Counted from the first letter of the stretch, positions 32,717-53,609 are shown. The stretch: 64,000 bases of DNA from Polyangiaceae bacterium (GCA_033763455.1 JANRKO010000019.1:128001-192000); one strand, 5' to 3'. Made by a program: numbers and translations. Notes: a model not told the origin generated them from the sequence alone.

Positions 32717-32718
32717 GA

Positions 32719-34842
32719 TCAAGCGAGCCTCAATAGTACGATGATGCGATCGATGAGCCATATGGCCGGAAAGGGCGCAAGCACCCCACCTACGCCGTAG
32801 ATGAGCAGATTGCGGCGCAAGGTGGAGACGGCATTGGTCGGGCGATAGGCAACGCCTCGGAGCGAAAGTGGGATGAGTGCGATGATGATGAGGGCGTTGA
32901 AGATAACCGCAGCAAGCACGGCGGACTGTGGGTTCGTGAGTTGCATGAAGTTGAGCTGGCCGAGCGCCGGATAAGTCAGCAAGAACATCGCCGGAATGAT
33001 GGCGAAGTATTTGGCGACGTCATTGGCGATGCTGAACGTCGTCAGTGCCCCGCGCGTCATCAGCATCTGTTTTCCGATCTCCACGACCTCGATCAGCTTG
33101 GTCGGGTTGGAGTCCAAATCGACCATATTTCCTGCTTCTTTAGCGGCCTGGGTTCCGGTATTCATGGCCACGCCCACGTCTGCTTGAGCAAGAGCGGGTG
33201 CGTCGTTCGTTCCATCTCCCGTCATCGCCACCAAACGCCCGCCGGACTGTTCTTCGCGGATGAACGCGAGCTTCATTTCAGGTGTTGCTTCGGCAATAAA
33301 GTCGTCAACACCTGCCTCCGCTGCGATGGCGGCAGCCGTCAGTGGGTTATCACCAGTGACCATGACCGTTTTGATGCCCATCTCGCGAAGTTGCAGAAAG
33401 CGCTCTTTCATACCACCCTTCACAATGTCTTTAAGCTGAATCACGCCAAGTGCCCGCCCACCTTCTGCCACCACAAGCGGCGTCCCACCGTCTTTGGCGA
33501 TGCGTTGAACAAGGTTCTGAATATCGGAGGGAAAAGTACCACCGTGGGACTCGACAAACTTCTTTACACTGTCCGACGCACCCTTCCGGATCTGCGAATC
33601 CCCCACATCCACCCCGCTCATACGGGTGTTGGCGGTAAACTCAACGAAGTGAGCATCACCGAGCTCGCTCACTTCACGGGCCGCGACTCCATATTTGTCC
33701 CTGGCGAGTACGACGATGCTTCTGCCTTCGGGCGTTTCGTCGGCAAGCGATGCCAGTTGGGCGACCCGCGCAAATTCCTCTATCCGTACGTTGCTGCTCG
33801 GGAAAAACTCAGTCGCCTGACGGTTGCCAAGCGTGATCGTACCGGTCTTGTCTAACAGCAAGGTGTTGACGTCGCCAGCCGCCTCCACGGCTTTGCCACT
33901 CATCGCCAATACATTGTGTTGCATCACGCGATCCATGCCGGCGATGCCGATGGCGCTCAAGAGGCCACCGATCGTCGTGGGGATGAGGCAAACGAGCAAC
34001 GCCACGAGGACCGTGATGCTGGGCACCGCTCCCGTTTCGCCCGCCGCGAACTTGGCGAAGGGCAACAAGGTCACCGTGGCGAACACGAAGATGAGTGTAA
34101 GCCCCGCAAGGAGTATTGAAAGCGCGATCTCGTTGGGCGTTTTCTGCCGCTTGGCGCCTTCAACTAGCGCAATCATACGATCAAGAAAGCTATGGCCTGG
34201 GTCTTGGGTTACGCGCACCACGATTCTATCGGAGAGCACTTTGGTACCACCAGTAACAGCGCTTCGGTCACCTCCACTTTCGCGAATAACGGGCGCTGAT
34301 TCACCGGTGATGGCCGACTCGTCTACACTTGCGACACCTTCGATAATCTCGCCGTCCGCTGCGATGACATCACCCACCTCGCACACGAAAAGGTCACCCT
34401 TTGCGAGGCGCGGGGCCGGAACGCGCTCCTCCTTTCCGTTCTGCAGTCGACGCGCTGTCGTGTCGGTTTTCGTCTTGCGCAAGGCGTCGGCCTGCGCTTT
34501 GCCGCGCCCTTCCGCCATCGCTTCTGCGAAGTTTGCAAAGAGCACCGTAAACCAAAGCCAGAGGCAGATTTGGCCCACAAAGAGTGTGTCCGCCGCGTTC
34601 GTTATGAGTCCCCGGATGAAGAAATAGGTGGTAATGGCGCTGCCGACCTCTACCACGAACATCACCGGATTTTTCGCCACTACGCGCGGATCGAGCTTCA
34701 CGAACGCGTCTTTTATGGCGCGGCGCACAATGCTGGCTTCGAAAAGCGCGCGTGGCGCATTTTTGGGTCGCACGCCGCGACTCGTCGAATCGGCTGGGGC
34801 AACTGCTGAAGGGGCAGGATCGAGAGTCTTTTGGGTTGCCAT
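32719..34842 (-). CDS. kdpB: K+-transporting ATPase subunit B
   Basis: [19 protein letters not shown]. Confidence 0.97.
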
Positions 34843-34855
34843 AGTGTCTATTCCG

Positions 34856-36667
34856 TCAGTGAGTTCCCAAGGTGTGCATCTGGAAGTGCTCAACGATGGG
34901 TCCGAGCGCGAGCCCCGGGAAATAGGTGAGCGCTCCTACGGTCAGCACGACGCCGATCAAGAGAGCCGTAAACGTGGGTGTATCAGTAGGGAATGTGCCG
35001 GATGAGGCAGGAACGAGTGTCTTTTTCGCCAAAGCGCCCGCCATGGCCAAGAGGGGCACGATCATGAAAAAGCGTCCAAACAACATCGAAAGGGCGATGG
35101 TCGTGTTGTACCAGGGCGTGTTTGCGGTGATGCCTGCGAAGGCAGAACCGTTGTTTCCCGTGCCTGAGGCATAAGCGTAGAAGATTTCGCTGAAGCCGTG
35201 AGGGCCACCGTTGTTGAGATTGTTCGTCGTCGCTCCGTAGACAGTGTCGGAGCCGCCGTAGGCGCTGCCTGGCCAGGTATTGAGTGCCGCAAGCGCACCT
35301 TCCTTGGGTATATCCACGGTGCTTGAGAGTGCCGTGAATCCGAGCACGCAAGCAGCCAAGATAAGAGTCGCCAACATCGCCATTTGCACCTCGAATTTCT
35401 CAATCTTCTTGCCGAGGTATTCCGGCGTTCGACCCACCATGAGGCCAGCGATGAACACGGCCAAGATGGCAAACATCAACATACCGTAAAGACCAGCACC
35501 GACGCCACCGAAGATCACTTCACCAGTCAGCATGTTAAATAGCGGCACAAGCCCACCCAGAGGCGTGAAGCTGTCGTGCATCGAGTTGACGGCTCCACAC
35601 GAAGCCCCGGTCGTCACCGTTGCAAACAACGCTGAGCTGGCGATACCGAAGCGGACTTCTTTGCCCTCCATGTTGCCACCGGGCTGGAGCGGTGTGGCGG
35701 CCGTCTCGATATTGGCGTTGGCAAGGTGCGGGGTTCCCGCTTGCTCCCCGACAGTGCAAACAACGACGCCCACGATGGCCAAAAAGGCCATGGCGCCAAA
35801 AATGGCCCAACCCTGCTTGGCATTGCCGACCATTTTGCCAAACGTGTGCGTGATGGCGGCCGGGATCATCCAAATGAGGAGAACCGTAAAGAAGCTGCTG
35901 AGCGCAGTTGGGTTTTCGAAGGGGTGCGCGGAATTCGCATTGAAAAAACCGCCGCCGTTGGTTCCGAGCTGCTTGATGATCTCCTGGGAAGCCACCGGGC
36001 CGAGCGCGATTGTCTGCTTACCACCTTCGAGCGTAGTCACCACGGTGTAGGGATCAAAATTCTGTGGGACCCCTAGCGCGAGGTAGATCACGGCGCCCAC
36101 CAAGGCTATCGGCAGGAGCACGTACAGGGTGGCGCGCACCACATCAACCCAGAAGTTCCCGATGCCATTGGCGTTCTTCCGCGCAAAGCCTCGAACCAGA
36201 GCGATGGCGATCCCGATACCCACGGCCGCAGACGCCCAGTTGTGGATGGCCAGTGCCACCATATTCGAGAAATACGAAAGAGTGACCTCCGGCGAATAGC
36301 TCTGCCAGTTGGTGTTCGTCGTGAACGACACGGCGGTATTGAACGCCAGATCGGGGCTCATTTGCTTGGCTCCGAAACCTTGCGGATTCAGCGGTAGAAA
36401 GCCTTGAAACCGCAACGCTGCATAGGTGAAAAGCAGCGAAACAATTGAGAATAGGAGCATGGCCACGGCATAGGTGGTCCACTTCATGTCGTTATTTGGG
36501 TCTACGCGGAGCACGCGATAGGTTCCTCGCTCCAGCCAGCCGAGCGGCGTGTGCAGGAACGTTTTCTCCCCTGAAAACACCCGAGCCATGTACGAACCCA
36601 AGGGCTTCGTAACCAAAAACAGCAGGCCAAAGAAAACGATACTTAGCAGAATAGCGGAAGTCGTCAT
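34856..36667 (-). CDS. kdpA: K+-transporting ATPase subunit A
   Basis: [25 protein letters not shown] filter motifs. Confidence 0.97.
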
Positions 36668-39210: not shown

Positions 39211-40974
39211 ATGGATCCCGAATACGCGAATCTCGTCGAACTGTTCGAGCAAGCCTGCGCCAAGTTCGATGCTCGCGAGTTGTTCGGAACCAAGCGGGGT
39301 GGCCGCTGGGAGTGGATGACGTTCGGGCAGTTCAAGGCCGACGTGGATAAGTGCCGGGGCGGCCTCGCGCAGCTGGGAGTGAGAGCCGGGGATAAGGTGG
39401 CGATAATCTCCAATAATCGCGTGGAATGGGCGGTGTTGGCGTACGCCACCTATTCGCTCGGGGCGGTTTACGTACCGATGTATGAAGTACAGCCCAAGGA
39501 TGAATGGGCTTTCATCTTGCATGATTCCGACGCCAAAGTGGTGGTCGCAGCGACTCGGGTGATTGCGGAAACGTTGGAAGGCTTGCGAACCGGCTGTCCC
39601 AAGTTGGAAAAGATCATCAGCTTGGAGGGCCCCGGTGGCTCCCTCTCTTACGAAGCCCTGCTCAGCCAGGGCGCCAGAACACCCAAAGATCCCGTGTATC
39701 CAGCGTCGAGTGAGGTTGCCGGCTTCATCTACACGTCGGGCACCACCGGGATGCCCAAGGGCGTAGTCCTCTCGCACTCGAACATCTGCTTCGACATTTG
39801 GGCCTCATTTTCCTGTTTTGACTTTGGCCCGCTAGACCGCTCGTTAGCGTTTTTGCCCTGGGCACACTCTTACGGCCAAGTAGCAGAGCTGCACGGGCTC
39901 CTTAGCCGCGGCACCTCGATCGCGATCAACGACGAGGTACCAAACCTCGTCGCCAACTTGGCCGAGGTGCGGCCAACCGTGCTGGTTGCCGTACCAAGGA
40001 TCTTTAACCGCATCTACGACGGCATCCAGAAACAGATGGCGGCCAAGCCGGGCGCCATTCGCGCGTTGTTCAAAAAAGGCGTCGACGTAGCCGGAAAAAA
40101 GAGCCGGGGTGAGAGAATTGGCACGCTCGATAGCATGGCCCACGCCTTGGCGGATAAGCTCATTTTCTCCAAGGTTCGAGCCAAATTCGGCGGCCGGTTG
40201 CGGTTTGTGGTGAGCGGAAGCTCGGCACTCAACAAAGACGTCGCCATGTTCATCGATGCGCTCGGAATCGAGGTTTATGAAGGATACGGCCTCAGCGAAA
40301 CGAGCCCCGTGGCAGCGAGCAATTACCCCGGGCACCGCAAGATCGGCAGCGTTGGCCTACCGCTACCAGGCGTCGAAATTCGTATTGATAAGAGCGTTTC
40401 CGATGATAACCACCAGGGGGAGATCTTGATCAAAGGTCGCAATGTAATGCAAGGTTATCACAATCGCCCGGAAGAAACGGCCCTAGTACTCCCAGGTGAC
40501 GGTTACCTCCGCACAGGAGATCTCGGCTACCTTGATGAAGACGGTTACCTCTTCATCACTGGGCGCCTGAAAGAGCAATACAAGCTGGAAAACGGTAAAT
40601 ACGTGGCGCCGGCACCGCTCGAAGAGGACCTCAAGCTTTCGCCGTTCATTCTAAATGCCATGCTGTACGGCGCCAACCACGCCTACAATGTGGCCCTCAT
40701 CGTGGTCGACAAAGTAGCAGTTGCCGAGTGGGCCAAAGAAAATGGCGTTGAACTAGGGGACCTCTCGAAGAACCAGAAGCTGAACGAACTTCTGTTTCGT
40801 GAGATTGAGACCTATGGGTCTAAATTCAAGAGCTTCGAGCGGCCCAAGAAGCTCTTCATCACCGACGAAGATTTTAGTACAGAAAATGAGCTTCTAACCC
40901 CATCCCTCAAGATCAAACGGCGCAATGTGTTGGCCAAATATGGCAAACAATTAGAGGCACTCTATTCGGAGTAA
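39211..40974 (+). CDS. Long-chain fatty acid--CoA ligase
   Basis: YTSGTTGMPKG, EGYGLSET, TGDLG, LTPSLKIKR. Confidence 0.92.
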   Translation: MDPEYANLVELFEQACAKFDARELFGTKRGGRWEWMTFGQFKADVDKCRGGLAQLGVRAGDKVAIISNNRVEWAVLAYATYSLGAVYVPMYEVQPKDEWAFILHDSDAKVVVAATRVIAETLEGLRTGCPKLEKIISLEGPGGSLSYEALLSQGARTPKDPVYPASSEVAGFIYTSGTTGMPKGVVLSHSNICFDIWASFSCFDFGPLDRSLAFLPWAHSYGQVAELHGLLSRGTSIAINDEVPNLVANLAEVRPTVLVAVPRIFNRIYDGIQKQMAAKPGAIRALFKKGVDVAGKKSRGERIGTLDSMAHALADKLIFSKVRAKFGGRLRFVVSGSSALNKDVAMFIDALGIEVYEGYGLSETSPVAASNYPGHRKIGSVGLPLPGVEIRIDKSVSDDNHQGEILIKGRNVMQGYHNRPEETALVLPGDGYLRTGDLGYLDEDGYLFITGRLKEQYKLENGKYVAPAPLEEDLKLSPFILNAMLYGANHAYNVALIVVDKVAVAEWAKENGVELGDLSKNQKLNELLFREIETYGSKFKSFERPKKLFITDEDFSTENELLTPSLKIKRRNVLAKYGKQLEALYSE

Positions 40975-41061
40975 GCCCAATACCCCCGAAACCTAAACTA
41001 GCGACGGAAGCCAGCTTTGATTTCGGGGGTTGTGCTTGTGGCACGTGGTCAGCTTTCGCCA

Positions 41062-42174
41062 TCATGCGCCACTCTTGCCGTTGGTGAGAAGCTGCGCCGG
41101 GAGCAGTGATTGGAGCCCGTCGGCCCCAACCACCACCTTCACTTCTTGGATGTGCTGAGCGATCTCTTTCATCGCTTCCAGCTCCTTCAAGCGCAAAAGT
41201 ACCGGGTTTGCCTCCATAACCTTGGCCGTGTTCGCCAACGACCGCGTAGCGGCCGTTTCTTCACGACGTAAGATCACGTTGGCCGCAGCTTCCTTTTCGG
41301 CCTCGATCACGCGATTCAACAGGGCTTTCATTTCACCCGGCAAAACCACGTCTTTGACACCCACATGTTCGATCTTGACTCCCAGCGCCGTGGTGCATGC
41401 CGTAACCCGTCGCTCCATGAAGCGTGTCATTTCGTCACGCCCTTCGAGCAATTGATCGAGGGTTACCCCGGCCACGTATTCACGCGCGGCAAGCTGGGCT
41501 GCCGTGTAGACAGAATCCCGTAGGTTCTGCACCTTGGTTGCAACCACCACCGGATCAGAAACAGCGTATTCGGCCGTTAACGTCAAACGCAACGTCACCT
41601 TATCTCGCGTCATCAATTCCTGACCAGCAATGGTTACTTCCTGGCGCCGCATATCCACGACGCCAATCTCGGCCTTGGCTCCAGGGTGCGTCCACAACTT
41701 GTATCGGCCCGGCGGCAACACAGAAACGAAGCGCCCCTGCTCGTAACGCAAGCCCATTTGGTAGGCCAATACCGTTACGTCAATGTACTCATTGGACGGA
41801 ATCAACCGCTCCAACTCTGCCGACATTTCCGGCAAAGGCTGAGTAACATCGAACACCGAAAGCTGCACAGAAGCATCTACGGTCCAATAACGGTGCACCC
41901 CCGGGCGCAAAAATGCCACCGGCACACCATCTTTGAACAGGACACCTCGTTCACCAGAACCAATCACAACCTCACGAAACCAAGCAGAAGGCAGTTTTGC
42001 CCGGACTTCCGGCAGGGCTGAAAACAGCAAAACACTGGTATCGAACCGTTGCTCAGTGAGCCGCAACGACCAAACCCGATAACGGCCCGGGCCAAGTGCA
42101 GCTACAGGTAAGCCGTCCTTGAAAAGAACCACTCGTTCGTTTAACTTCACACGAATCAATTTTGACCACAACAT
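41062..42174 (-). CDS. SPFH/band-7 (slipin family) protein
   Basis: Three ER..LF.DG...L.PG.Y repeats; GQELMTRDKVTLRL; REETAATRSLANTAK..E.NPVLLRLKELE; GAGG SD. Confidence 0.9.
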   Translation of the reverse strand: MLWSKLIRVKLNERVVLFKDGLPVAALGPGRYRVWSLRLTEQRFDTSVLLFSALPEVRAKLPSAWFREVVIGSGERGVLFKDGVPVAFLRPGVHRYWTVDASVQLSVFDVTQPLPEMSAELERLIPSNEYIDVTVLAYQMGLRYEQGRFVSVLPPGRYKLWTHPGAKAEIGVVDMRRQEVTIAGQELMTRDKVTLRLTLTAEYAVSDPVVVATKVQNLRDSVYTAAQLAAREYVAGVTLDQLLEGRDEMTRFMERRVTACTTALGVKIEHVGVKDVVLPGEMKALLNRVIEAEKEAAANVILRREETAATRSLANTAKVMEANPVLLRLKELEAMKEIAQHIQEVKVVVGADGLQSLLPAQLLTNGKSGA

Positions 42175-42189
42175 GGGTCACCTCTTGGG

Positions 42190-42652
42190 TTGATGGACTC
42201 CCACCTTCGGCGTGAGCACCATGCCCGCGCCTTTGGAGATCGTCGATTGCTGGTATTTGCCGATACCGTCGGCTTTCGGCGAGCCCGCCTTTGGCCCTAG
42301 TAGTAGGGAGAACGGGACTCGGAAGATGTGCGGGGGCTCTGCAGACTGCTTGAGCCCGAAATTAGTGGCTCCAGAGGTTCAAAGCCCGGCGCCTAGGTTG
42401 AAGCGCAGTGTGAAGCCGCCGTAGCGGCCTCCGAAACGCTTCTCGCTTGAGCGTCTTGGGTCCGATGATTTGCGCGAAATCACTGCGATCTCACCCGGTT
42501 GCAGTCAGCGGGCGCCGAGGCGATGGCCGAAGCTTGCGAGCGAAATGTACGTGAGTTTGGGCAAAACTCGGGTCCGTTCGCCTTCCCCCAATGGCTGCGG
42601 AAGGGCTTTGAAAACCTCTGGAAACCTGGTGTGAATGCCTTTTTAAGGCCAG
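42190..42652 (-). ncRNA. Putative large structured ncRNA / 5' leader of the slipin gene
   Basis: 18-bp long-range helix (42603-42622 with 42370-42387) plus many hairpins, including GCCGC-UACG-GCGGC; no credible ORF. Confidence 0.55.
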
Positions 42653-42653
42653 G

Positions 42654-42722
42654 CCCTTTGCTCTACCCGATGAGCTACAACTCCGTGAGGAGAAGATCGG
42701 ATTCGAACCGACTACCGAAGGG
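42654..42722 (-). ncRNA. Circularly permuted tRNA-like module (YrlA/Y-RNA-like architecture)
   Basis: CCCTT-CGGTA-GTCGG TTCGAAT CCGAT-CTTCTCC TCAC GGAGTTG-TA-GCTC ATCGGGTA GAGC-A-AAGGG: T arm, closed acceptor stem, D arm, anticodon-like stem. Confidence 0.75.
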
Positions 42723-42724
42723 TT

Positions 42725-42864
42725 CTGCCGTGACAGGGCAGTGTCATCCATGACAAGCATGCTTCCGGGACACAACTACCGGACATCCATCGGTGACTCA
42801 CGAGGAGACCAATGCACGCAGTGTTGCGCCGTTTTGAAGCAAGCTTCGCGGGATTCGAACCCGC
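42725..42864 (-). ncRNA. Rearranged tRNA-Asp(GUC)-like element
   Basis: T arm GCGGG TTCGAAT CCCGC (42864-42848) lies upstream of a D-like hairpin and the anticodon arm CTGCC CTGTCAC GGCAG (42741-42725). Confidence 0.5.
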
Positions 42865-42866
42865 GG

Positions 42867-42940
42867 CACACAAGGCAAGATTCGAACTTGCACTCTACTG
42901 ATATAGAATCAGCGGCCTCTACCTTTTGGGCTACATGTGT
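42867..42940 (-). tRNA. tRNA or tRNA-like gene with CUA anticodon (amber suppressor-like)
   Basis: ACACATG TA GCC CAAAAGGTAGA GGC C GCTGA TTCTATA TCAGT AGAGT GCAAG TTCGAAT CTTGC CTTGTGT G; 6/7 acceptor pairs; no encoded CCA; U37 atypical. Confidence 0.75.
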
Positions 42941-42993
42941 TAATTGGTTGCATACGGTTGGTCCTCTTGCTTTGAATATCGAGCCGGGAAATG

Positions 42994-43025
42994 AAAAAAG
43001 CCGCCGAGGTAACCCTGGGCGGCTT
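42994..43025 (-). terminator. Rho-independent terminator (attenuator)
   Basis: AAGCCGCC CAGG GTTA CCTC GGCGGCTT TTTT. Confidence 0.85.
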
Positions 43026-43050
43026 CACACAGAAACACTGCGTAAACGCC

Positions 43051-43179
43051 CTAGGGGGAGCCCCGAAAATCGCGAAAATTGCCGACTAAGCTGCGCTCGC
43101 GGCGTGCACCACAGACGAAAGCCATGCCAAGATTTGGCAGCTGTTGTGCTGTGATGGTGAAACGGTGGAAGTGCTTCAT
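43051..43179 (-). CDS. Putative leader/attenuator peptide (42 aa)
   Basis: MKHFHRFTITAQQLPNLGMAFVCGARRERSLVGNFRDFRGSP-TAG between promoter and terminator; stop codon lies within the antiterminator strand. Confidence 0.6.
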   Translation of the reverse strand: MKHFHRFTITAQQLPNLGMAFVCGARRERSLVGNFRDFRGSP

Positions 43180-43190
43180 GAGGAGGCCGC

Positions 43191-43218
43191 AGAGTACGGA
43201 TCTAGAAAAACAAGTCAA
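43191..43218 (-). promoter_or_regulatory. Sigma70-type promoter
   Basis: TTGACT-16 nt-TACTCT, ending 11 nt before the leader ATG. Confidence 0.6.
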
Positions 43219-43304
43219 CACAATATCGCTCAGGCGTGTTTTTTTTACGAGGTGACGTTGCTCGCGATCCTCATTTCAAAGCTCCACCATGCAACACAGA
43301 GTCC

Positions 43305-43997
43305 CTAGAGGCGAGCCGTCCAGACGCGTTCAGCGCTGCCGGGGCGAGTCACGAACAAGCGCAGTGTTACCGGAGCCCGTTCACCCATGAGATAAAGCAC
43401 GCGGATTTTGTGCTCCCCGGGAGCCAGCGGGATGCTGCCCATCGCATTATGAGCCTTCCTGCTGTCGTCGTTGTTCACGACTTGGCGGCCATTAATCCAC
43501 AGGATGGCGGCGCCCTGGGTCTTTAACCGAAACTTATAGTTGCCAGCCGCCGAAACGGAGAATCTGCCAGTGTAGTTAATGGCAAACCAGTCGTAGCGCT
43601 CGGCGATTCCTGGGAAACCCGAAAAGTAGCGCTGAGCTACGTCCAAGCTATCCACGAACAAGCGACCTTGCGGGATGCACCGTTCAAGGCGCAGCAAAGA
43701 CACTGTGTTAGGCTTAACAAAGCACACTGTACCCGCGAGCGCTGCTTTGCGGCTGTGGCCAAACAAGGTGCTCCCCGACACCACAGGTACGCGACCACCT
43801 TTGTGACTCGCCCAACGCTCGCCCATGCCAGCGGGCGTGCCGCCTTGCTCGACACCGTACCCGTCCATTCTGTTGCGGCTAGCAGTTCGGATCCGTTCCC
43901 CCAACGACTGACCATGGGCCGCGCCAGCTAAGCTCAGCACTCCAAGTGCCACGCGACTCCCCCACTTCCACAACGTCCCGATCACCATGCGTTTCAC
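43305..43997 (-). CDS. Secreted PA14 domain protein
   Basis: Signal peptide; FAINYTG.F....GNYKFRL...GAAILWING..VV.ND. Confidence 0.75.
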   Translation of the reverse strand: MKRMVIGTLWKWGSRVALGVLSLAGAAHGQSLGERIRTASRNRMDGYGVEQGGTPAGMGERWASHKGGRVPVVSGSTLFGHSRKAALAGTVCFVKPNTVSLLRLERCIPQGRLFVDSLDVAQRYFSGFPGIAERYDWFAINYTGRFSVSAAGNYKFRLKTQGAAILWINGRQVVNNDDSRKAHNAMGSIPLAPGEHKIRVLYLMGERAPVTLRLFVTRPGSAERVWTARL

Positions 43998-44151: not shown

Positions 44152-45603
44152 ATGGATCTCAAACACTACGAAGTGGATCCGAAGAGTTACGACGAAATGT
44201 TCGACGCGAGCGGCGAGGTTCGGCCGGCCTATCGGGAACTTGCGCGGCGGCTCGGCGAAATGTCCGGTGAAGATTTCACCCGGCGGCAACGCACGGCAGA
44301 TATCTTGCTGCGAAACCAGGGCGTCACGTTCACCGTGTACTCGGACGACGCGGGCATTGAGAAGGTTTTTCCGTTCGACCCCATCCCGCGCCTGATGCCT
44401 GCCGAAGAATGGAGCCTGATTGAACGCGGCTTGATTCAGCGCATTGAGGCCTTGAACCTTTTCATTGCTGACATCTATGGGGATCAACACATCCTCAAAG
44501 ACAAAGTGGTTGATCCTGAGCTCATCTTAGGCGCCTCATTTTTCCGCCGTGAGATGATGGGGTTTAGGCCGCCTCGTGGGATCTATACCCACATCACCGG
44601 CACAGATTTAATTCGCGATGCCAACGGAAAATTCGTCGTCCTAGAAGACAATGCTCGGAACCCAAGCGGCGTGAGCTACGTGCTTGAATGCCGCGCAGTT
44701 CTGAAACGTGTCTTCCCGCTCTTGTTCGAAACGTACGGAGTGCGCCCGGTTGAAGATTACGCCAATTGGCTCCGCGACATGATGCAATTTGTAGCGCCAC
44801 GAGGCTCATCCAATCCAAGCATGGTGGTGCTGACGCCGGGCATCTACAATTCGGCGTACTTCGAACACAGCTTTTTAGCCCGCCAAATGGGTGTACCGCT
44901 CGTCGAAGGTCGAGATTTGGTCGTAAAAGATGGAATGGTGTGCATGCGCACGATTACCGGGCTGCAGCGGGTGGATGTTATCTACCGGCGCCTGGATGAT
45001 GACTTTCTGGACCCACTTATCGGTCGCCCTGATTCGGTATTGGGCTGCGCGGGGCTTTTCTCGGCGTATCGCAGTGGGGCGGTGACGCTCGTGAACGCAC
45101 CAGGCACAGGCGCCGTGGACGATAAAGCTGTCTACCCGTTCGTGCCGGACATGATTCGTTATTATCTTAAGAGTGAACCTATCATTGACAACGTTCCAAC
45201 CTATTTGGCAACCCGCCCGGATGAGCAGAAGTACATGCTCGAGAATATCCACGAACTGGTGATCAAACAGACCGACGCTTCCGGCGGCTACGGCATGTTG
45301 ATTGGCACGCACTCTACGGCAGAGGAACGCGAAGACTTCAAACGGCGCATCAAGGCTAAGCCCCGCTCCTACATTGGCCAACCCACTATCAGTCTCGGCA
45401 AACATCCCACAGTAATCGACGGTAAGCTGGAAGGGCGGTGCGTCGATTTGAGGCCTTATGTCCTTTATGGCGAGCGAATTTCGGTCATTCCAGGAGCCCT
45501 CACCCGGGTGGCACTCAGGAAGGGCTCTCTCGTTGTTAATTCAAGCCAAGGTGGTGGCTACAAAGATACCTGGGTGCTCACTGATAAGGGAGGCGCAGCC
45601 TAA
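44152..45603 (+). CDS. Circularly permuted type 2 ATP-grasp protein
   Basis: [52 protein letters not shown]. Confidence 0.93.
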
Positions 45604-46520
45604 TGTTAAGCCGAGTTGCAGACGCCCTTTATTGGATGAGCCGTTACGTCGAACGTGCTGAGCACGCAGCACGTGTCCTCGAGGTCACACGCCGCATGTT
45701 GATCGACGTTGAGCCCCTCGCCCCTCAAATGGCCAAACGCATTCGGGACGACGCATTTCGCAGCTTGGGCCTTCCGGGCGTCGACTTGCACGGAGCCATC
45801 TTCGACGAATCAGAGCCTGGGTCTATCGCCTCCTCTGTCTTCAGAGCCCGAGAGAATGCTCGTCAGGTGCAGGAGGTTATTAGCTCGGAGATGTGGGGCT
45901 ATATCAACGAGACGCACTGGATGCTCTCGGAGGCCCGTCGGGCGGGGCCTTCGCGTGAGCTGCCAGACCTCTTGGGTGAAGTAGTAAAGGCTGGGTTTCT
46001 TTGGGCTGGGGTTACGGATGCCACTATGGGTCGCGGGCCTGGTTGGTTGTTTATTCGCCTGGGCCAGTTCGTTGAACGAGCGGACCGAACGAGTCGAATT
46101 TTTGCGGCACAATGGGAGGCCATCGAGGAGTTGAGTACTGAGGCCATCCACACCTCGGGCGATCACTTTGCCTGGCTCACATTGCTTCGGAGTTGCGGAT
46201 CGCTTGAGGAGTATAGGAAGCGGTACCCAACACGCATGACAGCACGGCAAGTGGCGGATTTTATGCTGCTAGACGACACCTTTCCGCGCACCGTGCGCTA
46301 CTCAGTCTCAGTTGCGGCCGAATTTTCAAAACGCTTAACCCAGTTCGCAAGCCCCGAACGCGCCCGCGCTGAACGCGCGTTTGGGAGAGTCGCTTCTCGC
46401 ATCGAATACACCACCATCGACGAAGTTATGGAGACCGGCCCAGCTGTGTTCGTGAGAGGCGTTGCAGAAGAGATCTTGCTGGCGACAGCCGAGCTCCAGA
46501 GCGCGTATTTCTTGCACTAA
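45603..46520 (+). CDS. Alpha-E domain protein
   Basis: [35 protein letters not shown]. Confidence 0.92.
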   Translation: MLSRVADALYWMSRYVERAEHAARVLEVTRRMLIDVEPLAPQMAKRIRDDAFRSLGLPGVDLHGAIFDESEPGSIASSVFRARENARQVQEVISSEMWGYINETHWMLSEARRAGPSRELPDLLGEVVKAGFLWAGVTDATMGRGPGWLFIRLGQFVERADRTSRIFAAQWEAIEELSTEAIHTSGDHFAWLTLLRSCGSLEEYRKRYPTRMTARQVADFMLLDDTFPRTVRYSVSVAAEFSKRLTQFASPERARAERAFGRVASRIEYTTIDEVMETGPAVFVRGVAEEILLATAELQSAYFLH

Positions 46521-46529
46521 CGAGGACCC

Positions 46530-47549
46530 ATGCTGCTGTTCATCAAACACCTCACCGAACTCACGTATTCGGAGCCCATCACCGAAACGGTGATGGAAGT
46601 TCGCATGACTCCGCGAAACGATGCCCACCAAGTGCGGCGCGCGTTTCGCCTGGAGGTGGGGCCCAGCGCCACACCTTTCGAACACACAGATTGGCTCGGT
46701 AACCGCGTGCAGCAGTTCTCCATTTTGCCCCCGCACGATAAAGTCGTGATCTTGGCTCGGAGCGTGGTGGATACGCAGCCAAGGCACTCAGTGCTCGCAG
46801 ATGTGAATCGCGGGTCAGTGCCTCCGCTCGACCATCGAATCGGCGACTATTTGCGCTTCACCGGGCCGGTTGTGGACGTTCACAACCTCGACCGTTTGAT
46901 TCAAAATTTGGGGCTCGGGGCACCGGCGTCGCCTGAAGTTATTCTGCAACGAGTCGCGTCAAACCTGCGCGATCACGTGGAGTACCGTAAAGGCGTTACC
47001 ACGAGCGCCACGGCGATCGACAAGGTGCTCGAGCAGCGCGCTGGTGTGTGCCAGGATCTGGCTCACGTGGCCATTGGGATCTTGCGCAAGCTCGGCGTAC
47101 CAGCTCGCTACGTGTCGGGGTATTTCTATCGCGCGGATGGAAACAGCGAGATGGAGAGCCATGCTTGGTGCGAGGCGCACTTCCAGGGCACAGGTTGGCT
47201 CCCGATAGATCCCACCCACAAAACACTGGCGGGCGAAGGGCACGTTGCTATCGCGAGCGGTCGCGATTTCTCTGACGTTTCACCCAATCGCGGCGTCTAT
47301 CGCGGCAAGGGTGAAGAGAGCCTGCGCGTAAGAGTCACCGTGCAAGAGGTGCAAGAGGTACCCGAAGGCTTATTTGCCGTAGGCTCACCCGAAGTCGAGG
47401 TGCAGCCAATTGGAGGAGGCATGCTTCCCACCCACCGCGAAGCTCTCGAATACCAGCAAGAACAGCAGCAACAGCAGCAACAGCAGCAACAAGTACAGCA
47501 GCAACAGCAGCAACAAGTACAGCAACACCAATATTCGGCTGTGCACTGA
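46530..47549 (+). CDS. Transglutaminase family protein with poly-Gln tail
   Basis: GVCQDLAH, HAWCE, IDPT triad; C-terminal Q-tract. Confidence 0.92.
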   Translation: MLLFIKHLTELTYSEPITETVMEVRMTPRNDAHQVRRAFRLEVGPSATPFEHTDWLGNRVQQFSILPPHDKVVILARSVVDTQPRHSVLADVNRGSVPPLDHRIGDYLRFTGPVVDVHNLDRLIQNLGLGAPASPEVILQRVASNLRDHVEYRKGVTTSATAIDKVLEQRAGVCQDLAHVAIGILRKLGVPARYVSGYFYRADGNSEMESHAWCEAHFQGTGWLPIDPTHKTLAGEGHVAIASGRDFSDVSPNRGVYRGKGEESLRVRVTVQEVQEVPEGLFAVGSPEVEVQPIGGGMLPTHREALEYQQEQQQQQQQQQQVQQQQQQQVQQHQYSAVH

Positions 47550-47559
47550 GCCTTATCCC

Positions 47560-50500
47560 ATGGCCATTCGAGTTCGTCTCAGTCATCAAACGCGTTACCG
47601 TTACGACAAGCCCATTAACCTGGGCCCACAAACGGTTCGCCTCCGACCAGCACCCCACAACCGCACGCCCCTACACACGTATGGGCTTCACATCGAACCC
47701 AAGGGCCACTTTCTCAATTGGCAGCAGGATCCTTACGGCAATTATCTGGCAAGGCTGGTTTTCCCAGAAAAGGTAGACCATTTTGAAGTCACCGTCGATT
47801 TGGTCGCCGATCTTGAGGCGTACAATCCGTTTGATTTTTTCGTCGAGCCAGAAGCCGAGAATTTCCCTTTCAGCTACGAGCCCACACTTAAAAAAGAGCT
47901 AGAGCCCTATCTAGAGCAAGACCCCCTAACGCCCGCCCTCGCAGCTTTCATCGACAGTTTGAACAAGACACCGCGGAGAGTTAACGATTTCCTTGTAGAA
48001 ACGAACCGCGCTGTAAATGAGGCCGTTAGCTACATTATTCGCCTGGAGCCGGGCGTCCAAAGTCCCGAAGAAACGCTCACTCTGGCCAAGGGCTCGTGTC
48101 GAGATTCTGCATGGCTATTGGCGGTGGTGTTGCGAAAGCTAGGCCTGGCGGCCCGGTTTGTTTCCGGATACCTCATCCAGCTCACGCCAGATCAGCGCCC
48201 GATTGAAGGCGCCCAGGGCCCGCTCGCAGACTTTTGCGACTTGCATGCCTGGTGTGAAGTCTACGTTCCCGGCGCCGGTTGGATTGGGTTAGATGCAACG
48301 AGCGGGCTTCTGACAGCCGAAGGGCACATTCCGCTCGCGTGTTCCCCAAGCCCAGGTTCTGCGGCACCCATTTCGGGGCTGTTGGATGAAGCCGAAACCG
48401 ATTTCAGCCATCACATGTTTGTGGAACGCGTGGTGGACGTTCCCCGCGTCACCAAACCCTATACCGATGAAGAGTGGGCCGCCGTTGAGAAGTTCGGCAC
48501 CAAGGTGGATGAGCATCTAACGCGCTCAGACGTTCGCCTCACCGTAGGGGGTGAGCCCACCTTTGTGAGCACCGAATACCCGGATGACGCCGAATGGAAC
48601 ACGGACGCCCTTGGTAAAAATAAGGAAGGCCTTGCCGATAAGCTGATTCGCCGTTTGCGGAGCGACTGGTATCCCAAAAGCGCCCTCTACCATGCGCAGG
48701 GCAAGTGGTACCCGGGTGAGCCTTTGCCGCGGTGGGCTATTTCCTGCTTCTTTCGCACCGACGGCGTGCCCGTTTGGAATGATCCTGCGCTTATAGCCGA
48801 TACCAACAAGAGCTACGACCACGGGCCCAAAGAGGCCGAAGCCTTCGCAAAGCGTTTGATCGAGAATCTCGGGCTCGAGCGCCACGGCCTGATGCCAGCG
48901 TTTGAGGATGCTTGGTACTACATGTGGCGCGCGCGGCGTTTACCTGTAAACGTGATGCCGCTCGATAATCGCGTGGATGATGAGGTGGAGCGCGAGCGAA
49001 TAGCGGCCGTATTCAACCAAAAGCTATCCAGCGTGGTGGGCTATGTGCTCCCCCTGACGTATTGGGGTGGTTGGCGCAGTGGGTCTTTTTTCCTCAAAGA
49101 TGAACGCTGCTACCTGCTTCCTGGTGATTCGCCGATGGGTTACCGCTTGCCTTTGGATTCCCTACCGTGGATCGCCCAGGAAGATTGGGACGGCAACATT
49201 CCGGTAGATCCTTTCGCGCGCCAGCCTTCGTTGCCAAAGGCCTTTCACTTCCCGTTGATGCCGGCGCCCGCGATGCCGGCGCCTATCCGCCGTGTGGTGC
49301 CTTCTCTGCCGAAAGCCGAAGTTGCGCCCAACGGGCAGCCAAAAGGCGCCGTTCCTTCACCTCGCGGCGCCGCCCCAGGCAGCACTCATGCCGCGCCGTT
49401 CACGTCACCCGCACAGTTCGAGTCTGCCACGGGCGTGGTGCGCACCGCTTTGTGTGTCGAGCCCCGAGCCGGTCGTTTGCGGATCTTCTTGCCTCCACTG
49501 GAAACGCTCGAAGCGGCCCTTGAGCTCATCGCCGCCATCGAAACAACCGCGGCGCAGCTGAAGCTACCCGTGCAACTGGAAGGCTACGAACCCCCGAGGG
49601 ATCCGCGGCTCGGCGTGTTTCGTGTCACTCCGGATCCGGGTGTGATCGAGGTCAACGTGCCCCCGGTCTCCAGTTTTGCGGCGCAGAAGCTCCAAACCCT
49701 CTCGCTCTATGAACACGCTCGCCAAGTAAAGTTGAGCGCCGAAAAGTTTGATCTCGACGGCACCCACATCGGCAGCGGCGGTGGCTACCACCTCGTGCTT
49801 GGCGGAATGACGCCTGAAAATAGCCCATTTTTGCGGCGACCAGATTTGCTCGGCAGTTTGATTCGTTATTTTCACAACCACCCCAGCCTCTCTTATCTTT
49901 TCTCAGGGCGCTTCATCGGCCCCACCTCGCAATCGCCACGCGTGGATGAAGGCCGCAACGACAGCATCTACGAACTCGAAATAGCTCTCCAACAGTTGCC
50001 GCAAAAGGGGCAGAACGTTCCACCGTGGATTGTGGACCGTGTGCTCCGGCACTTGCTCGCAGACGTTACTGGCAACACCCATCGGACGCAGTTCTGCATC
50101 GATAAGCTCTATTCCCCCGATAGCGCTACAGGGCGGCTCGGCCTCTTGGAGCTGCGCTCTTTCGAAATGCCACCGCATGCCCAAATGGCGGTCGTGCAAC
50201 AGCTCTTAGTGGGCGCTATGGTCGCGAGTTTTTGGGAGCAACCTTATCGTGAAGATCTGGTGTCGTGGAACACGATGCTGCACGATAAATTCATGCTCCC
50301 CTACTTCGTAAAGCGTGACTTTTACGAGGTGCTGGCCGATCTTGAGCGACGCGGATTCAAGCTCGATCGCCACTGGTTCGAGCCACATTACCAGTTTCGG
50401 TTCCCGTATATCGGGCACGTGGTTAAGGATGCTGTAACCCTAGAGATACGTGGCGCTCTCGAACCCTGGAATGTGCTCGGAGAAGAGAGCACTGGAGCCG

Positions 50501-50949
50501 GGACTGCCCGCTACGTGGATTCATCAGTTGAACGCTTGCAGGTACGCGTATTCGGTGCCACACCCGGCCGGCATATTGTGTGTTGCAACAACGTGGAGCT
50601 ACCGCTTGTTGCCACTGGCGTGGAAGGCGAAATGGTAGGGGGCGTGCGTTATCGAGCCTGGCAACCCCCATCATGCCTTCACCCAACCATCGGCGTTCAG
50701 TCACCGCTTGCGTTCGATTTGTACGATCGTTGGAACGGCGTGGCGATTGCGGGGGCCACCTATCACGTAGTGCACCCGGGAGGCCGGGCGGATGAGGTCC
50801 GCCCCGTAAATGCAGCAGCCGCGGAAAGCCGCAGGCTCGCTCGCTTCGAGGCTCGCAGCGTAGGCACCCGTTTGGTTCAACCGCGGCGCCTGGAGCCCCA
50901 TCCGAAGTTCCCATTTACGCTCGATTTACGCCGGGCTTGGCTAGCCTAA
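47560..50949 (+). CDS. Transglutaminase + DUF2126 (putative amidoligase) fusion
   Basis: GSCRDSAWL, DLHAWCEVY, GLDAT; GGEPTFVS, GKWYPGEPLPRW, TPDPGVIEVN, GNTHR, FEMPPH. Confidence 0.92.
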   Translation: MAIRVRLSHQTRYRYDKPINLGPQTVRLRPAPHNRTPLHTYGLHIEPKGHFLNWQQDPYGNYLARLVFPEKVDHFEVTVDLVADLEAYNPFDFFVEPEAENFPFSYEPTLKKELEPYLEQDPLTPALAAFIDSLNKTPRRVNDFLVETNRAVNEAVSYIIRLEPGVQSPEETLTLAKGSCRDSAWLLAVVLRKLGLAARFVSGYLIQLTPDQRPIEGAQGPLADFCDLHAWCEVYVPGAGWIGLDATSGLLTAEGHIPLACSPSPGSAAPISGLLDEAETDFSHHMFVERVVDVPRVTKPYTDEEWAAVEKFGTKVDEHLTRSDVRLTVGGEPTFVSTEYPDDAEWNTDALGKNKEGLADKLIRRLRSDWYPKSALYHAQGKWYPGEPLPRWAISCFFRTDGVPVWNDPALIADTNKSYDHGPKEAEAFAKRLIENLGLERHGLMPAFEDAWYYMWRARRLPVNVMPLDNRVDDEVERERIAAVFNQKLSSVVGYVLPLTYWGGWRSGSFFLKDERCYLLPGDSPMGYRLPLDSLPWIAQEDWDGNIPVDPFARQPSLPKAFHFPLMPAPAMPAPIRRVVPSLPKAEVAPNGQPKGAVPSPRGAAPGSTHAAPFTSPAQFESATGVVRTALCVEPRAGRLRIFLPPLETLEAALELIAAIETTAAQLKLPVQLEGYEPPRDPRLGVFRVTPDPGVIEVNVPPVSSFAAQKLQTLSLYEHARQVKLSAEKFDLDGTHIGSGGGYHLVLGGMTPENSPFLRRPDLLGSLIRYFHNHPSLSYLFSGRFIGPTSQSPRVDEGRNDSIYELEIALQQLPQKGQNVPPWIVDRVLRHLLADVTGNTHRTQFCIDKLYSPDSATGRLGLLELRSFEMPPHAQMAVVQQLLVGAMVASFWEQPYREDLVSWNTMLHDKFMLPYFVKRDFYEVLADLERRGFKLDRHWFEPHYQFRFPYIGHVVKDAVTLEIRGALEPWNVLGEESTGAGTARYVDSSVERLQVRVFGATPGRHIVCCNNVELPLVATGVEGEMVGGVRYRAWQPPSCLHPTIGVQSPLAFDLYDRWNGVAIAGATYHVVHPGGRADEVRPVNAAAAESRRLARFEARSVGTRLVQPRRLEPHPKFPFTLDLRRAWLA

Positions 50950-51050: not shown

Positions 51051-53609
51051 TTGCTCCCAACCCAGTTTCAGTCCCAATCCCAGTCAGAACCGCCTCCGTC
51101 CACGGGCGGTGGCGAGTCCTACGACGAGATCTGGAGCGGCCCTGGCCACGCGAGGGCCCACCAGGCGCTCTTGCAGGAGCACCTACTAGTTCAGCCCCTG
51201 GACGATCTGCTGAAGGTTCGCCAGGCGGTTGAGCGTCAGATGGCCGAGCAAGCTGTTACGTTCAACATCTTGGGCGTTCCCGGAGGCGAAAACCGCTCTT
51301 GGGAGCTCGACCCAATCCCATGGGTGATTGAAAGTCGCGAATGGGCAGAGCTGTCGCGGAAGCTCGTACAACGAGCCCAGCTCCTGGAAGCGTTCTTGGC
51401 GGACTGTTACGGCCCGCAACGCATGCTGCGCGAAGGTGTCATTCCGGCCCGCGTGGTCCTCGCCAATCCAGACTTTCTGCGAGCGTGTCACGGCTGGCGC
51501 CCACTCGGAGAGAAGCGTCTATGGCTCTACGCTGCAGATCTCGCACGCGACAAAGCTGGTGATTTTCACGTATTTTCCGATCGCGCCGCAGCACCTACAG
51601 GGGCGGGCTACGCGCTCGAAAATCGCCTGGTTTTGGGGCGGGTTTTAGGGGATTTGTTCCGTGAATACCGGGTCACGAAAGTTCGGGGTTTCTTCGAAAA
51701 GCTGAAGGCGTGCGTAGCCGAGTTGGCTCCACCGGGCCGCCCCGATCCCCGTGCGATCGTGCTCACAACGGGCATGCAAGATGAGAGTTCGTTCGAGCAT
51801 GCCTACTTAGCTCGCTACCTCGGCTTTGATCTTATGGAGGGCCGAGATCTGAGCGTGAGAGACGGCAAAGTCTTCCTAAAGACAGTCGCCGGGCTCACCC
51901 AGATCGACGTGATTTTGCGCCGTGTTCCAGATGCCTTCTGTGATCCTGTCGAGCTTCGCGAAGATTCCATGATCGGCGTTCCCGGCCTCGTGGAAGCCGC
52001 CCACGGAAAACACATTGGGTTGGCCAATCCGCTTGGGGCAAGCCTCATCGAATCACCTGCAATGAAAGCATTTCTCGGGCCCCTGTGCCAAGCCCTTCTG
52101 GGAGAGGATTTGCTGTTACCTTCGGTGGAGACTCACTATCTCGGGACGCCCGGATCGCTAGAATACGTACAATCCAAGCCTGAAGAATTCCTGATAAAAC
52201 CAGCCTTTGCAGAGCGTCGCGGGGCGATTCGGCCTTTGGGCGAGTTGAGTATCTCCGAGCGAACAACGCTTTTAGATTCTGTGAAGGCGCGCCCTCACGA
52301 CTTCGTAGCGGAACGCTGGCCCGCCTGCTCTCGCAGCCCCCTTCTCACTCGACACGGCCTCGGAGCAGGAAGGCTTACCCTGCGCTCATTTCTGTGCCGC
52401 GACAAAGAATCTTTCGCCGTGATGCCGGGGGGCTTCGCACGGCTTGATTCAACACCAGACGGCATCTTCCTCACCAACCGCCTTACGCGAACCTGCAAAG
52501 ACGTTTGGATCCCTGAGGTGGGTACGACCTACGACATGAAGTTGCCGCAGATGCCCGATCAACGCATGTCGCTCCGACGTGGTGCCCAAGATCTACCAAG
52601 CCGCTTGGTGGACGATATTTTTTGGTTGGGGCGTTACATCGAACGCACCGATGCTTCAGCTCGTTTGATCCGCGCCGGTTTTGACCGCCTAGGAATGGAA
52701 GCCGCTGGTGACGCGCAGCAAGTATTAGAAGCAATTCTTGAAGCGTTGAAGCTCAAGGGGCAGCTACCAGCGACGTTCGATGTGCGCGGTATGTTTTCGA
52801 AGCCCGATAATCGAGCCCTGGCGCAGGTGCTAAACGGCGCATTATTCGATCAAACCTCCGGCAGCAGCGTGTACGCCACGCTCGATCGTATCCACAAACT
52901 CATGATCGGCGTAAGAAGCCGCCTTTCCCGTGACGCGTGGCATACGTTGAGGCGTCTTACGAGTGCCCTGGATGCAACCCCACTGCACCATTCGTCGCTC
53001 GGCACGGCCGAGATCTTGGAACTTCTGGACGAGCTTCTGGTACTGCTTTCTGCTGCCACCGGAGCCACGCTCGATAACATGGTGCGAGGCCACGCCTGGC
53101 TGTTTCTCGATCTCGGGCGCCGCCTTGAACGAGCGTCGGCTACCCTGGAACTGTTGGAAGCGATGCTGCCATCAGGGGCCACGCGCGCGCACATGGAATG
53201 CTTATTGGAAGTTACAGATAGCTTGCTCACGTATCGCGCCCGCTACGTTTCTAGCCTGCAAGTGGCCCCCATCGTTGACCTCCTACTTACAGACAATACC
53301 AATCCGCGCTCTGTGCTCTTTCAAGTCGAAACCATCGATCAGCACGTAGAAGCACTACCTAACCAAAGCGGCGCTCTGGTAACACGAGCCGAAAAGCGCG
53401 TGCTCACCCTCCGAACCCGCCTCGTCGCAGCAGATATCGAGGAAGCCACCGGGGGTCAAGGCGAAGGCCTGCGCCAACTTGTGAAAGACGCCGCCGAGCT
53501 TGTTTGGCAGCTCTCTGATGATATCGCCGCGACGTGGTTTTCACACGCAGCCCCCTCACGCTCGCTCACCATTCCCGCTTGGGTTAACGAACAACTCGAA
53601 CGCCAGTGA
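51051..53609 (+). CDS. Circularly permuted ATP-grasp + alpha-E fusion protein
   Basis: WELDPIP, GYALENR, KDVW; LPSRLVDDIFWLGRYIER, LGRRLER, NPRSV. Confidence 0.9.
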   Translation: MLPTQFQSQSQSEPPPSTGGGESYDEIWSGPGHARAHQALLQEHLLVQPLDDLLKVRQAVERQMAEQAVTFNILGVPGGENRSWELDPIPWVIESREWAELSRKLVQRAQLLEAFLADCYGPQRMLREGVIPARVVLANPDFLRACHGWRPLGEKRLWLYAADLARDKAGDFHVFSDRAAAPTGAGYALENRLVLGRVLGDLFREYRVTKVRGFFEKLKACVAELAPPGRPDPRAIVLTTGMQDESSFEHAYLARYLGFDLMEGRDLSVRDGKVFLKTVAGLTQIDVILRRVPDAFCDPVELREDSMIGVPGLVEAAHGKHIGLANPLGASLIESPAMKAFLGPLCQALLGEDLLLPSVETHYLGTPGSLEYVQSKPEEFLIKPAFAERRGAIRPLGELSISERTTLLDSVKARPHDFVAERWPACSRSPLLTRHGLGAGRLTLRSFLCRDKESFAVMPGGFARLDSTPDGIFLTNRLTRTCKDVWIPEVGTTYDMKLPQMPDQRMSLRRGAQDLPSRLVDDIFWLGRYIERTDASARLIRAGFDRLGMEAAGDAQQVLEAILEALKLKGQLPATFDVRGMFSKPDNRALAQVLNGALFDQTSGSSVYATLDRIHKLMIGVRSRLSRDAWHTLRRLTSALDATPLHHSSLGTAEILELLDELLVLLSAATGATLDNMVRGHAWLFLDLGRRLERASATLELLEAMLPSGATRAHMECLLEVTDSLLTYRARYVSSLQVAPIVDLLLTDNTNPRSVLFQVETIDQHVEALPNQSGALVTRAEKRVLTLRTRLVAADIEEATGGQGEGLRQLVKDAAELVWQLSDDIAATWFSHAAPSRSLTIPAWVNEQLERQ

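Follow-up and report, generated by a model that had tools for sequence, protein, structure and literature searches.

Three traits define the YrlA RNAs (Chen et al., 2014, PMC4201824): a module that binds Ro60 and bears the motif GNCGAAN0-1G, a module resembling tRNA, with V, T, an acceptor-like hairpin and D in that order, and adjacency to rsr. The one member whose acceptor stem has 7 base pairs (bp) is cleaved by RNase P and receives CCA. YrlA genes occasionally adjoin a Band-7 gene according to Wang et al. (2018, bioRxiv 10.1101/312249), who also relate a prediction by Burroughs and Aravind (2016) of a tRNA-like non-coding RNA, b7a-tRNA, encoded beside RtcB and cognate to a Band-7 protein. 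Here we describe an RNA element encoded upstream of a slipin gene, a member of the SPFH (Band 7) family, in a stretch of 64,000 nucleotides (nt) from a Polyangiaceae bacterium (GCA_033763455.1, JANRKO010000019.1:128001-192000). This whole stretch is called the window below, and positions are counted from its first letter. The nearest known thing to the element is the predicted Band-7-associated tRNA-like RNA, and the YrlA idea, of Burroughs and Aravind. As in their prediction, a tRNA-like RNA gene lies beside a Band-7/SPFH gene and is proposed as its cognate RNA, here in the window and in 65 of 80 related loci. By the description that Wang et al. (2018) relay, with which we compare it, b7a-tRNA is strongly authentic-tRNA-like and sits beside RtcB, whereas the element reported here joins a circularly permuted tRNA mimic to ~400 nt of other structure and goes together with tRNA arrays, and no RtcB gene was found among 46 reading frames of the window or conserved beside the loci.

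A preliminary description of this DNA pointed to a large RNA domain of elaborate structure at 42190-42652, upstream of slipin. This claim held, as homologues exist and their structure covaries. The region forms the 3′ domain of a composite non-coding RNA that is conserved, measures ~500 nt and is encoded at ~42866-42367 on the minus strand. Three covarying modules make up this RNA: a long 5′ hairpin, the permuted tRNA mimic, and a multi-arm domain of ~260 nt closed by a helix that we call P1. The preliminary description covers its 3′ half only and misses the 5′ half, which contains the YrlA-like mimic at 42722-42654, and the embedding in tRNA arrays seen in relatives. The stretch 42366-42175 is a poorly conserved leader.

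Relatives were collected by a profile scan of genome contigs with an alignment of 36 slipins (A1) as the query. The scan gave 387 relatives, and the top 80 of them serve here as loci (L001-L080). These 80 are all Myxococcota, with 51-70% identity; most are Polyangiaceae/Polyangiales, and Sandaracinaceae, Kofleriaceae and Labilithrix also occur. They do not include the genome of the window itself. In records from Polyangiaceae and Myxococcales, relatives of the protein carry the label slipin family protein. With one sequence as the query, nhmmer returned matches directly upstream of slipin, on the same strand, at ~25 loci. An iterated profile built from the loci alone matched (E <= 1e-10) on the slipin strand in 65 of the 80, ending 3-480 nt before the slipin start, and in 46 of these 65 the match passes position 300 and so enters the large domain. 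In two more loci, L020 and L022, the element lies 1-3 kb upstream of slipin, and the upstream sequence was too short in L012 and L068. This profile, made without the window sequence, has one match in the 64 kb, at 42866-42429 (minus strand, E 1.1e-49). These results show that Polyangia have conserved the RNA upstream of this subfamily of slipins. An all-against-all comparison of 3445 open reading frames (ORFs) from the loci found no protein family besides slipin in more than 13 loci; the larger ORF clusters were shadow frames over slipin or tRNA genes.

Several other origins of the conserved sequence were rejected. Stop-free frames in the upstream regions are uninformative at 60-75% G+C; tblastn of slipin and its long-form relatives against 42000-43400 gave only weak matches (E >= 0.02) upstream of the annotated start, and a pseudogenised coding extension is rejected. 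The arm formed by the closing helix occurs once in the window and therefore belongs to no repeat family; a repeat or mobile element is excluded, as the arm and the profile each match once in the window, the locus is fixed in relatives, and blastn against plasmid and phage collections gave no match at E 0.01. A miniature inverted-repeat element is likewise excluded by its single copy in 64 kb and one fixed locus in relatives.

The evidence for structure comes from three alignments, each compared with controls in which the pairing partners were slid (by 1-3 columns for the mimic) and with 500 shuffles; in all three the covariation exceeds every shuffle and every slid control. In the alignment of the mimic (A4, plain MAFFT, 63 sequences), 92.5% of the cells of its 21 pairs are paired, versus 34-44% when slid, the covariation is 0.662 (at most 0.112 when slid; none of the 500 shuffles as high), and 20 of the 21 pairs change on both sides. 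The 33 pairs of the 5′ part, comprising a T-arm-like hairpin (H1) and the long irregular hairpin Domain A (A5, 22 sequences), are 84.2% paired versus 36-49%, with covariation of 0.385 versus at most 0.151. For the large domain (A3, 17 sequences) the consensus was taken from averaged per-sequence pair probabilities, which replaced RNAalifold because the latter, run directly on the MAFFT alignments, gave fragments or doubtful pairs only. Its 104 pairs, 84 of which change on both sides, are 72.0% paired versus 38-44%, with covariation of 0.389 versus 0.10-0.155 and no shuffle reaching the observed value. The RNAduplex energy of the closing helix relative to shuffles (z from -6 to +0.9) was dropped as uninformative, since random segments of G+C-rich sequences give long spurious duplexes. 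We conclude that the element is almost certainly a functional structured RNA. Its parts and surroundings are listed in Table 1.

Table 1. Features of the composite RNA and its surroundings in the window.
Feature	Position	Strand	Remarks
PA14-domain ORF	43305-43997	-	other flank of the gap
Gene-free gap	42175-43304		1130 nt; between the PA14-domain ORF and the slipin gene
tRNA-like gene, anticodon CUA	42865-42940	-	directly 5′ of the element; ARAGORN cta; Rfam tRNA 50.3 bits (gathering score 29) at 42867-42940
H1, orphan T-arm-like hairpin	42847-42865	-	6 bp, loop UUCGAAU
Domain A, long irregular hairpin	42769-42830	-	A5 helix 2
D-arm-like hairpin	42754-42743	-	within 42725-42754
Anticodon-arm-like hairpin	42741-42725	-	7-nt loop CUGUCAC; 7-nt-loop hairpins here in most of 13 aligned sequences
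Permuted tRNA mimic	42654-42722	-	A4 covariation; YrlA topology
Mimic, anticodon-stem 3′ strand	42722-42718	-	followed by the variable region
Mimic, T arm	42712-42696	-	
Mimic, acceptor stem	42695-42678	-	7 bp, loop UCAC; followed by U8 and A9
Mimic, D arm	42675-42660	-	followed by A26
Mimic, anticodon-stem 5′ strand	42658-42654	-	
Small hairpin	42636-42651	-	stem CGAC/GUCG, A-rich loop of ~7 nt, CYNNNAA in close relatives; read from alignments
P1, 5′ strand	42603-42626	-	closing helix of the large domain
P2, small hairpin stacked on P1	42584-42602	-	window minimum-free-energy fold and A3
P3, long four-segment arm	42460-42582	-	A3 helices 3-6; also in the window minimum-free-energy fold
P4, arm with tip hairpin P5	42388-42455	-	P5 at 42431-42412, loop UACG
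P1, 3′ strand	42367-42387	-	probably the 3′ end region of the RNA
Leader hairpin CCGR-CGGNN-YCGG	42259-42273	-	86 nt from the slipin start in the window
Slipin / SPFH (Band 7) gene	41062-42174	-	370 amino acids; Pfam Band_7 E 3e-29

In the mimic the parts of a tRNA follow one another in permuted order, and 19 of the 21 pairs form in the window. The D-loop and T-loop sequences are conserved. The two acceptor strands covary heavily (one pair, for example, is GC in 22 sequences, AU in 19, CG in 7 and UA in 7), which rules out an artefact from dimeric tRNA, a case that Chen et al. (PMC4201824) caution about. Across loci the acceptor loop measures 3-55 nt; it starts with NCC in 14 of 54 (11% expected) and with NCCA in six. 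Some loci also have a local anticodon arm 3′ of the D arm, with a freely varying anticodon, and such free variation between species makes decoding unlikely. Circularly permuted tRNA genes and two-piece tmRNA (transfer-messenger RNA) share the order in which the 3′ tRNA half precedes the 5′ half, the two being joined by a loop; they differ in that the loop is only 4 nt in the window and the anticodon varies freely. At 42696-42754, a range that includes the two small hairpins of 42725-42754, Rfam reports a weak tRNA match of 20.3 bits, below the gathering score.

The order of the modules, the closure equivalent to an anticodon stem and the conserved T- and D-loops are all shared with YrlA (RF02553), which is also the best non-tRNA Rfam match in the region, a partial one at 42656-42720 on the minus strand (model positions 23-85 of 114; 27.4 bits, E 0.0023). 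Together with the occasional Band-7 neighbours of YrlA noted by Wang et al. (2018), this likeness raises the idea of a true Y RNA that binds an Rsr/Ro60 protein encoded elsewhere, with slipin as an alternative or additional partner. We consider this very unlikely. The score is far under the gathering score of 69, which YrlA reaches neither in the window nor in any of the 24 related loci searched. The Ro60 motif occurs in 26 of 66 elements, versus 15.2 +/- 3.3 in shuffles, and its positions are scattered and non-homologous. No rsr gene or other TROVE protein was found among the 46 window ORFs scanned or conserved beside slipin in the 80 loci, the linked protein being SPFH. Moreover, the element is 2-6 times the size of a Y RNA, with the mimic set in a 500-nt RNA that has two more covarying domains. 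Of the features that define YrlA only the tRNA-like module is present, so the element is YrlA-like in shape only and we do not class it as YrlA.

A divergent, perhaps two-piece, tmRNA-like RNA for ribosome rescue was suggested by ARAGORN, which calls tmRNA over the element in L053 (5107-5627) and L067 (5278-5635) and a permuted one nearby in L025 (4430-5003), by the permuted tRNA-like part, and by acceptor loops that start with ACC or ACCA in some loci, long ones with ACC being found in L036, L059 and L017, for example. The tag peptides of the two calls differ (ARCHRSPA in L053, GDAHPAA in L067), however, and the Rfam tmRNA models match nothing in these three loci or in the window and do not reach the gathering score in the 24 related loci. 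tmRNA is not known to have a canonical D arm, whereas one is present here, and the acceptor of the window is closed by its 4-nt loop. We therefore find a tmRNA hardly credible.

The element is tied to tRNA genes in many of the loci, and tRNA arrays are part of its ancestral setting. ARAGORN reports at least one tRNA in 38 of the 80 loci, and in 16 the slipin strand holds 10-30 tandem tRNA genes, which in many cases flank slipin on either side (maximum 30, in L019); as many loci are short contigs, these counts are lower bounds. In 24 loci a tRNA adjoins the element's 5′ end (12 Leu, 6 Glu, 6 other), and in array-bearing relatives the position of H1 is that of the T arm of the last tRNA. The close relatives of the window (L001, L002, L003, L005, L010, L014 and L021) have no tRNAs, the array having been lost, and the window retains a single tRNA-like gene. 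Its CUA anticodon is of the amber-suppressor type, with U at position 37, and its G+C content is 46% versus 55-61% for the window. TAG terminates 9 of the 37 Pfam-backed ORFs of the window, so the genome is not recoded, and the gene probably does not serve in decoding. Among the loci it is most similar to a short tRNA-Leu(CAA) of L004 (74% over 89 nt). The window's cloverleaf tRNA(CUA), 690 nt upstream, is not conserved in the closest relatives of the window. As a separate observation, one gene inside the array of L019 (7909-7994) matches the Rfam tRNA-Sec type at 54.1 bits (gathering score 47), while ARAGORN reports it as tRNA-Ser(cga).

Such remnants could be read as the functionless debris of a tRNA array, pseudo-tRNAs and spacers kept by linkage: the window contains pieces of half a tRNA, a T arm on its own and a tRNA-like gene whose anticodon loop is odd, its close relatives have lost the array, and the frequency of NCC 3′ of the acceptor 3′ strand points to a tRNA origin. 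Yet compensatory changes preserve the 21 pairs of the mimic and the 104 pairs of the non-tRNA domain in up to 63 species, which implies selection on structure rather than decay. The acceptor strands of two decayed tRNAs would not remain complementary, and the element persists where the array is gone. Decay is thus a highly improbable explanation. In the 5′ part, all six pairs of H1 (five changing on both sides, 88% of cells paired) and 23 of the 27 pairs of Domain A (20 changing on both sides, 83% paired) form in the window.

The large 3′ domain is closed by P1, whose 21 pairs (17 changing on both sides) are paired in 78.7% of cells. Its core is the helix given in the preliminary description, in which 42622-42615 and 42612-42603 pair with 42387-42370 on the minus strand through 18 bp with a 2-nt UU bulge, enclosing 215 nt; it can be extended by GG/CC at 42626-42625 and 42368-42367. 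P2 is a weak helix (11 pairs, 8 changing on both sides, 62% paired). P3 has 47 pairs, 40 of them changing on both sides, with 67-76% of cells paired. Within the domain, sequence conservation is highest at the tip of P3 (42530-42505), which carries GGCCAUCG ... CGGCGACCGCC in relatives. The window aligns poorly with the other rows along this arm, and 21 of the 47 column pairs form in it. P4 (A3 helix 7) has 14 pairs, 12 changing on both sides (78.7% paired), and P5 (A3 helix 9) has nine, five changing on both sides (58% paired). The minimum-free-energy fold of the window has the same layout of P1, long arm and P4-P5, with P4 in a slightly different register (42442-42436 with 42406-42400).

The smaller hairpins first listed inside and downstream of this domain fared less well. 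All the complementary segments are present in the sequence, but homologues support only the closing helix and the hairpin at the position of the UACG loop, and the latter, at 42431-42412, is retained as the weakest helix counted. GAGUUU/AAACUC, GAUUU/AAAUC and ACGCU/AGCGU found no support and compete with P3 and P4, long-range arms that are conserved, and GGUAU/AUACC shares bases with another hairpin that is conserved, CCGA-CGGUA-UCGG (42273-42259). The repeated AUUUCGC motif is unremarkable, as we estimate that ~6 repeated 7-mers are expected in 460 nt, and it is absent from homologues. A perfect 13-nt inverted repeat connects 42408-42420, on the 3′ side of P5, with 43018-43030, in a terminator-like hairpin (43030-42995) upstream of the tRNA; by our estimate ~0.01 such matches are expected in 1250 nt, and the repeat could reflect long-range pairing or chance.

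The folding energy agreed with a structured RNA. The minus strand from 42652 to 42190 folds at -188.6 kcal/mol, versus -162.9 +/- 5.7 for dinucleotide shuffles (z -4.52), with none of 100 shuffles as good, and the whole 771-nt gap segment gives z -4.51 and likewise beats all of its 20 shuffles. The plus strand of 42190-42652 folds nearly as well (z -4.32, dinucleotide shuffles), again with no shuffle as good, so that folding energy alone does not decide the strand; we assigned the minus strand because of the tRNA-type T and D loops and of the many G-U pairs in covarying helices (22 of 63 at one T-stem pair of the mimic in A4).

The domain had been assigned to no known family, which our searches confirmed. 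At gathering score Rfam reports only tRNAs in the window and in the 24 related loci, and with the limit raised to E 10 the domain in the window matched no Rfam 15 family except raiA, at 13 bits on the opposite strand. GOLLD (RF01998) and ROOL (RF03087), like the element, are large multi-arm RNAs of unknown function, and they occur beside tRNA genes. The preliminary description advised that GOLLD be excluded, and indeed neither it nor ROOL matched at E up to 10 in 41900-43300 or at gathering score in the window and the 24 loci. They also differ in host clade, and the present element is fixed beside one protein gene and has no phage or plasmid match. In the literature searched we found no description of the large domain or of the composite RNA, and the domain is without known relative.

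AlphaFold2 run on A1 gave a slipin model (predicted local distance difference test, pLDDT, 83; predicted template-modelling score, pTM, 0.58) with three beta units, two of them five-stranded and the third running into the SPFH domain, followed by a helix of ~60 residues; it has no membrane helix. Foldseek against the PDB gave the best E-values to stomatin, HflK/C and prohibitin over ~230 columns. Alignments that span the entire chain came from a single PDB family, the major vault protein (389-452 columns, E 1.8e-11 to 7e-9, template-modelling score by query up to 0.47). All structural matches are ring- or cage-forming families. Long forms of the slipin (487-506 amino acids; P0003, P0004, P0005 and others) have four copies, not two, of the N-terminal beta module of ~60 amino acids, so repeat number varies as would be expected of a modular cage wall. 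The eukaryotic vault resembles this system in the beta repeats, the SPFH-type domain and the long helix of its protein, and in a structured RNA genetically tied to the protein. It differs in repeat number (2-4 in slipin, nine in the vault protein) and in the RNAs, which are unrelated in sequence. The vault RNA binds a TROVE protein.

We tentatively propose that the composite RNA acts as the RNA partner of slipin. In this model the RNA and the downstream slipin gene would share one transcription unit, tRNA-processing enzymes would excise the RNA at its tRNA-like 5′ border, and its 3′ end would follow P1, with a U run next in some species. The excised RNA may then work in trans as the cognate RNA of slipin, which, as a predicted soluble protein with beta repeats, SPFH domain and long helix like the major vault protein, could by analogy with its family form a ring or cage. 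The mimic might serve as a tRNA-shaped handle that recruits or decoys tRNA-binding factors, such as repair, modification or cleavage enzymes, in translational stress, and the large domain as the protein-binding or scaffolding part. In an Anabaena trcR mutant, slipin alr0740, RtcB and a 26-gene tRNA-array operon were all derepressed (PMC10272220), which ties both slipins and arrays of tRNA genes to translational stress in a second phylum.

The same position can be explained by a cis-acting leader: within a tRNA operon, the element would form the untranslated 5′ part of the slipin mRNA. Its tRNA-like modules would then be RNase P and RNase Z processing signals that free the mRNA, P1 with a U run an attenuator, and a hairpin by the ribosome-binding site a means to tune translation, perhaps sensing tRNA-processing capacity or tRNA damage. 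The position is constant, directly upstream and co-oriented, in the 65 loci, and the array loci with tRNAs on both sides of slipin make one long precursor likely. Terminator-like runs of at least five U within 15 nt 3′ of P1 occur in 5 of the 17 relatives (at least four U in 7). A hairpin is conserved by the ribosome-binding site in 24 of the 80 upstream regions, mostly 8-31 nt before the slipin start and directly followed by a GGAGG-type site; its motif has 50 matches in the 1.76 Mb of loci (both strands), about half of them in those upstream regions, and its closing pair shows a change between A-U and G-C. This hairpin is a candidate for a separate element of translational control. On the other hand, 500 nt with three covarying modules and a full tRNA-shaped core with conserved loops far exceed the needs of processing or attenuation, most relatives and the window have no such U run, and no ligand- or tRNA-sensing Rfam family matches. 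A mainly cis-acting role is the chief rival to the partner model; it is in our view rather unlikely, though less so than the other alternatives. In the window genome only, an 86-nt stretch parts the leader hairpin from the start codon, and a 14-codon upstream ORF seen by eye lies there (42178-42222, minus strand; ATG at 42222, TGA at 42180-42178), stopping 3 nt before the slipin start.

Several points weigh against slipin's RNA partner as the role of the element. Every functional step of that model is our inference, and a constant, co-oriented upstream position fits a cis-acting leader equally well. RtcB, Rsr/TROVE and other RNA-repair genes are absent from the 46 scanned window ORFs and none is conserved beside the loci. 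A scan for promoters and terminators found none in 40900-43400, and the window has no clear U run 3′ of P1 (at most three U), where only 5 of the 17 relatives have five or more. The A3 structure came from folding the very sequences on which it was assessed, so the measure of paired cells is favoured, an effect that is smaller for covariation and the slid controls. No other row of A3 diverges as far as the window, in which 53 of the 104 column pairs form as aligned. The likeness to the vault comes from one AlphaFold model, at a root-mean-square deviation of 11-13 A, and the best E-values belong to membrane SPFH proteins.

If slipin and the composite RNA do form a pair, this would be a well-defined, covariation-supported case of an SPFH/Band-7 protein with a large RNA of its own, a pairing so far known as a comparative-genomics prediction only. 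It would also add a new class to the short list of bacterial structured RNAs of more than 400 nt with unknown function, and would connect three poorly understood subjects, namely soluble SPFH cages, Y-RNA-type mimics of tRNA and arrays of tRNA genes. A further and unlikely extension is that Polyangia carry a bacterial counterpart of the vault, in which a soluble slipin, its repeats like those of the vault protein, its SPFH domain as shoulder and its helix as cap, would build a cage around or beside the 500-nt RNA, and that senses or shelters tRNAs under attack on translation. The attackers might be, for example, anticodon nucleases of phages or rival bacteria, and the unit would be encoded in the midst of a spare tRNA array. 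Such a system would bear on the origin of the vault and on how bacteria protect translation under stress. One carrier of the element, Labilithrix luteola DSM 27648 (L048), is a strain-collection isolate with a complete public chromosome; its element is at L048:5383-5716, with slipin at 6001.

Elsewhere in the window, genes of the circularly permuted ATP-grasp, alpha-E and transglutaminase-like kinds form two clusters that are paralogous, on the plus strand at 44152-50949 and 51051-54475, the former also with a DUF2126 amidoligase of 1179 amino acids. A complete kdp locus for potassium uptake, encoding KdpA, KdpB, KdpC, the KdpD sensor kinase and a response regulator, is found at 28647-36667 on the minus strand.

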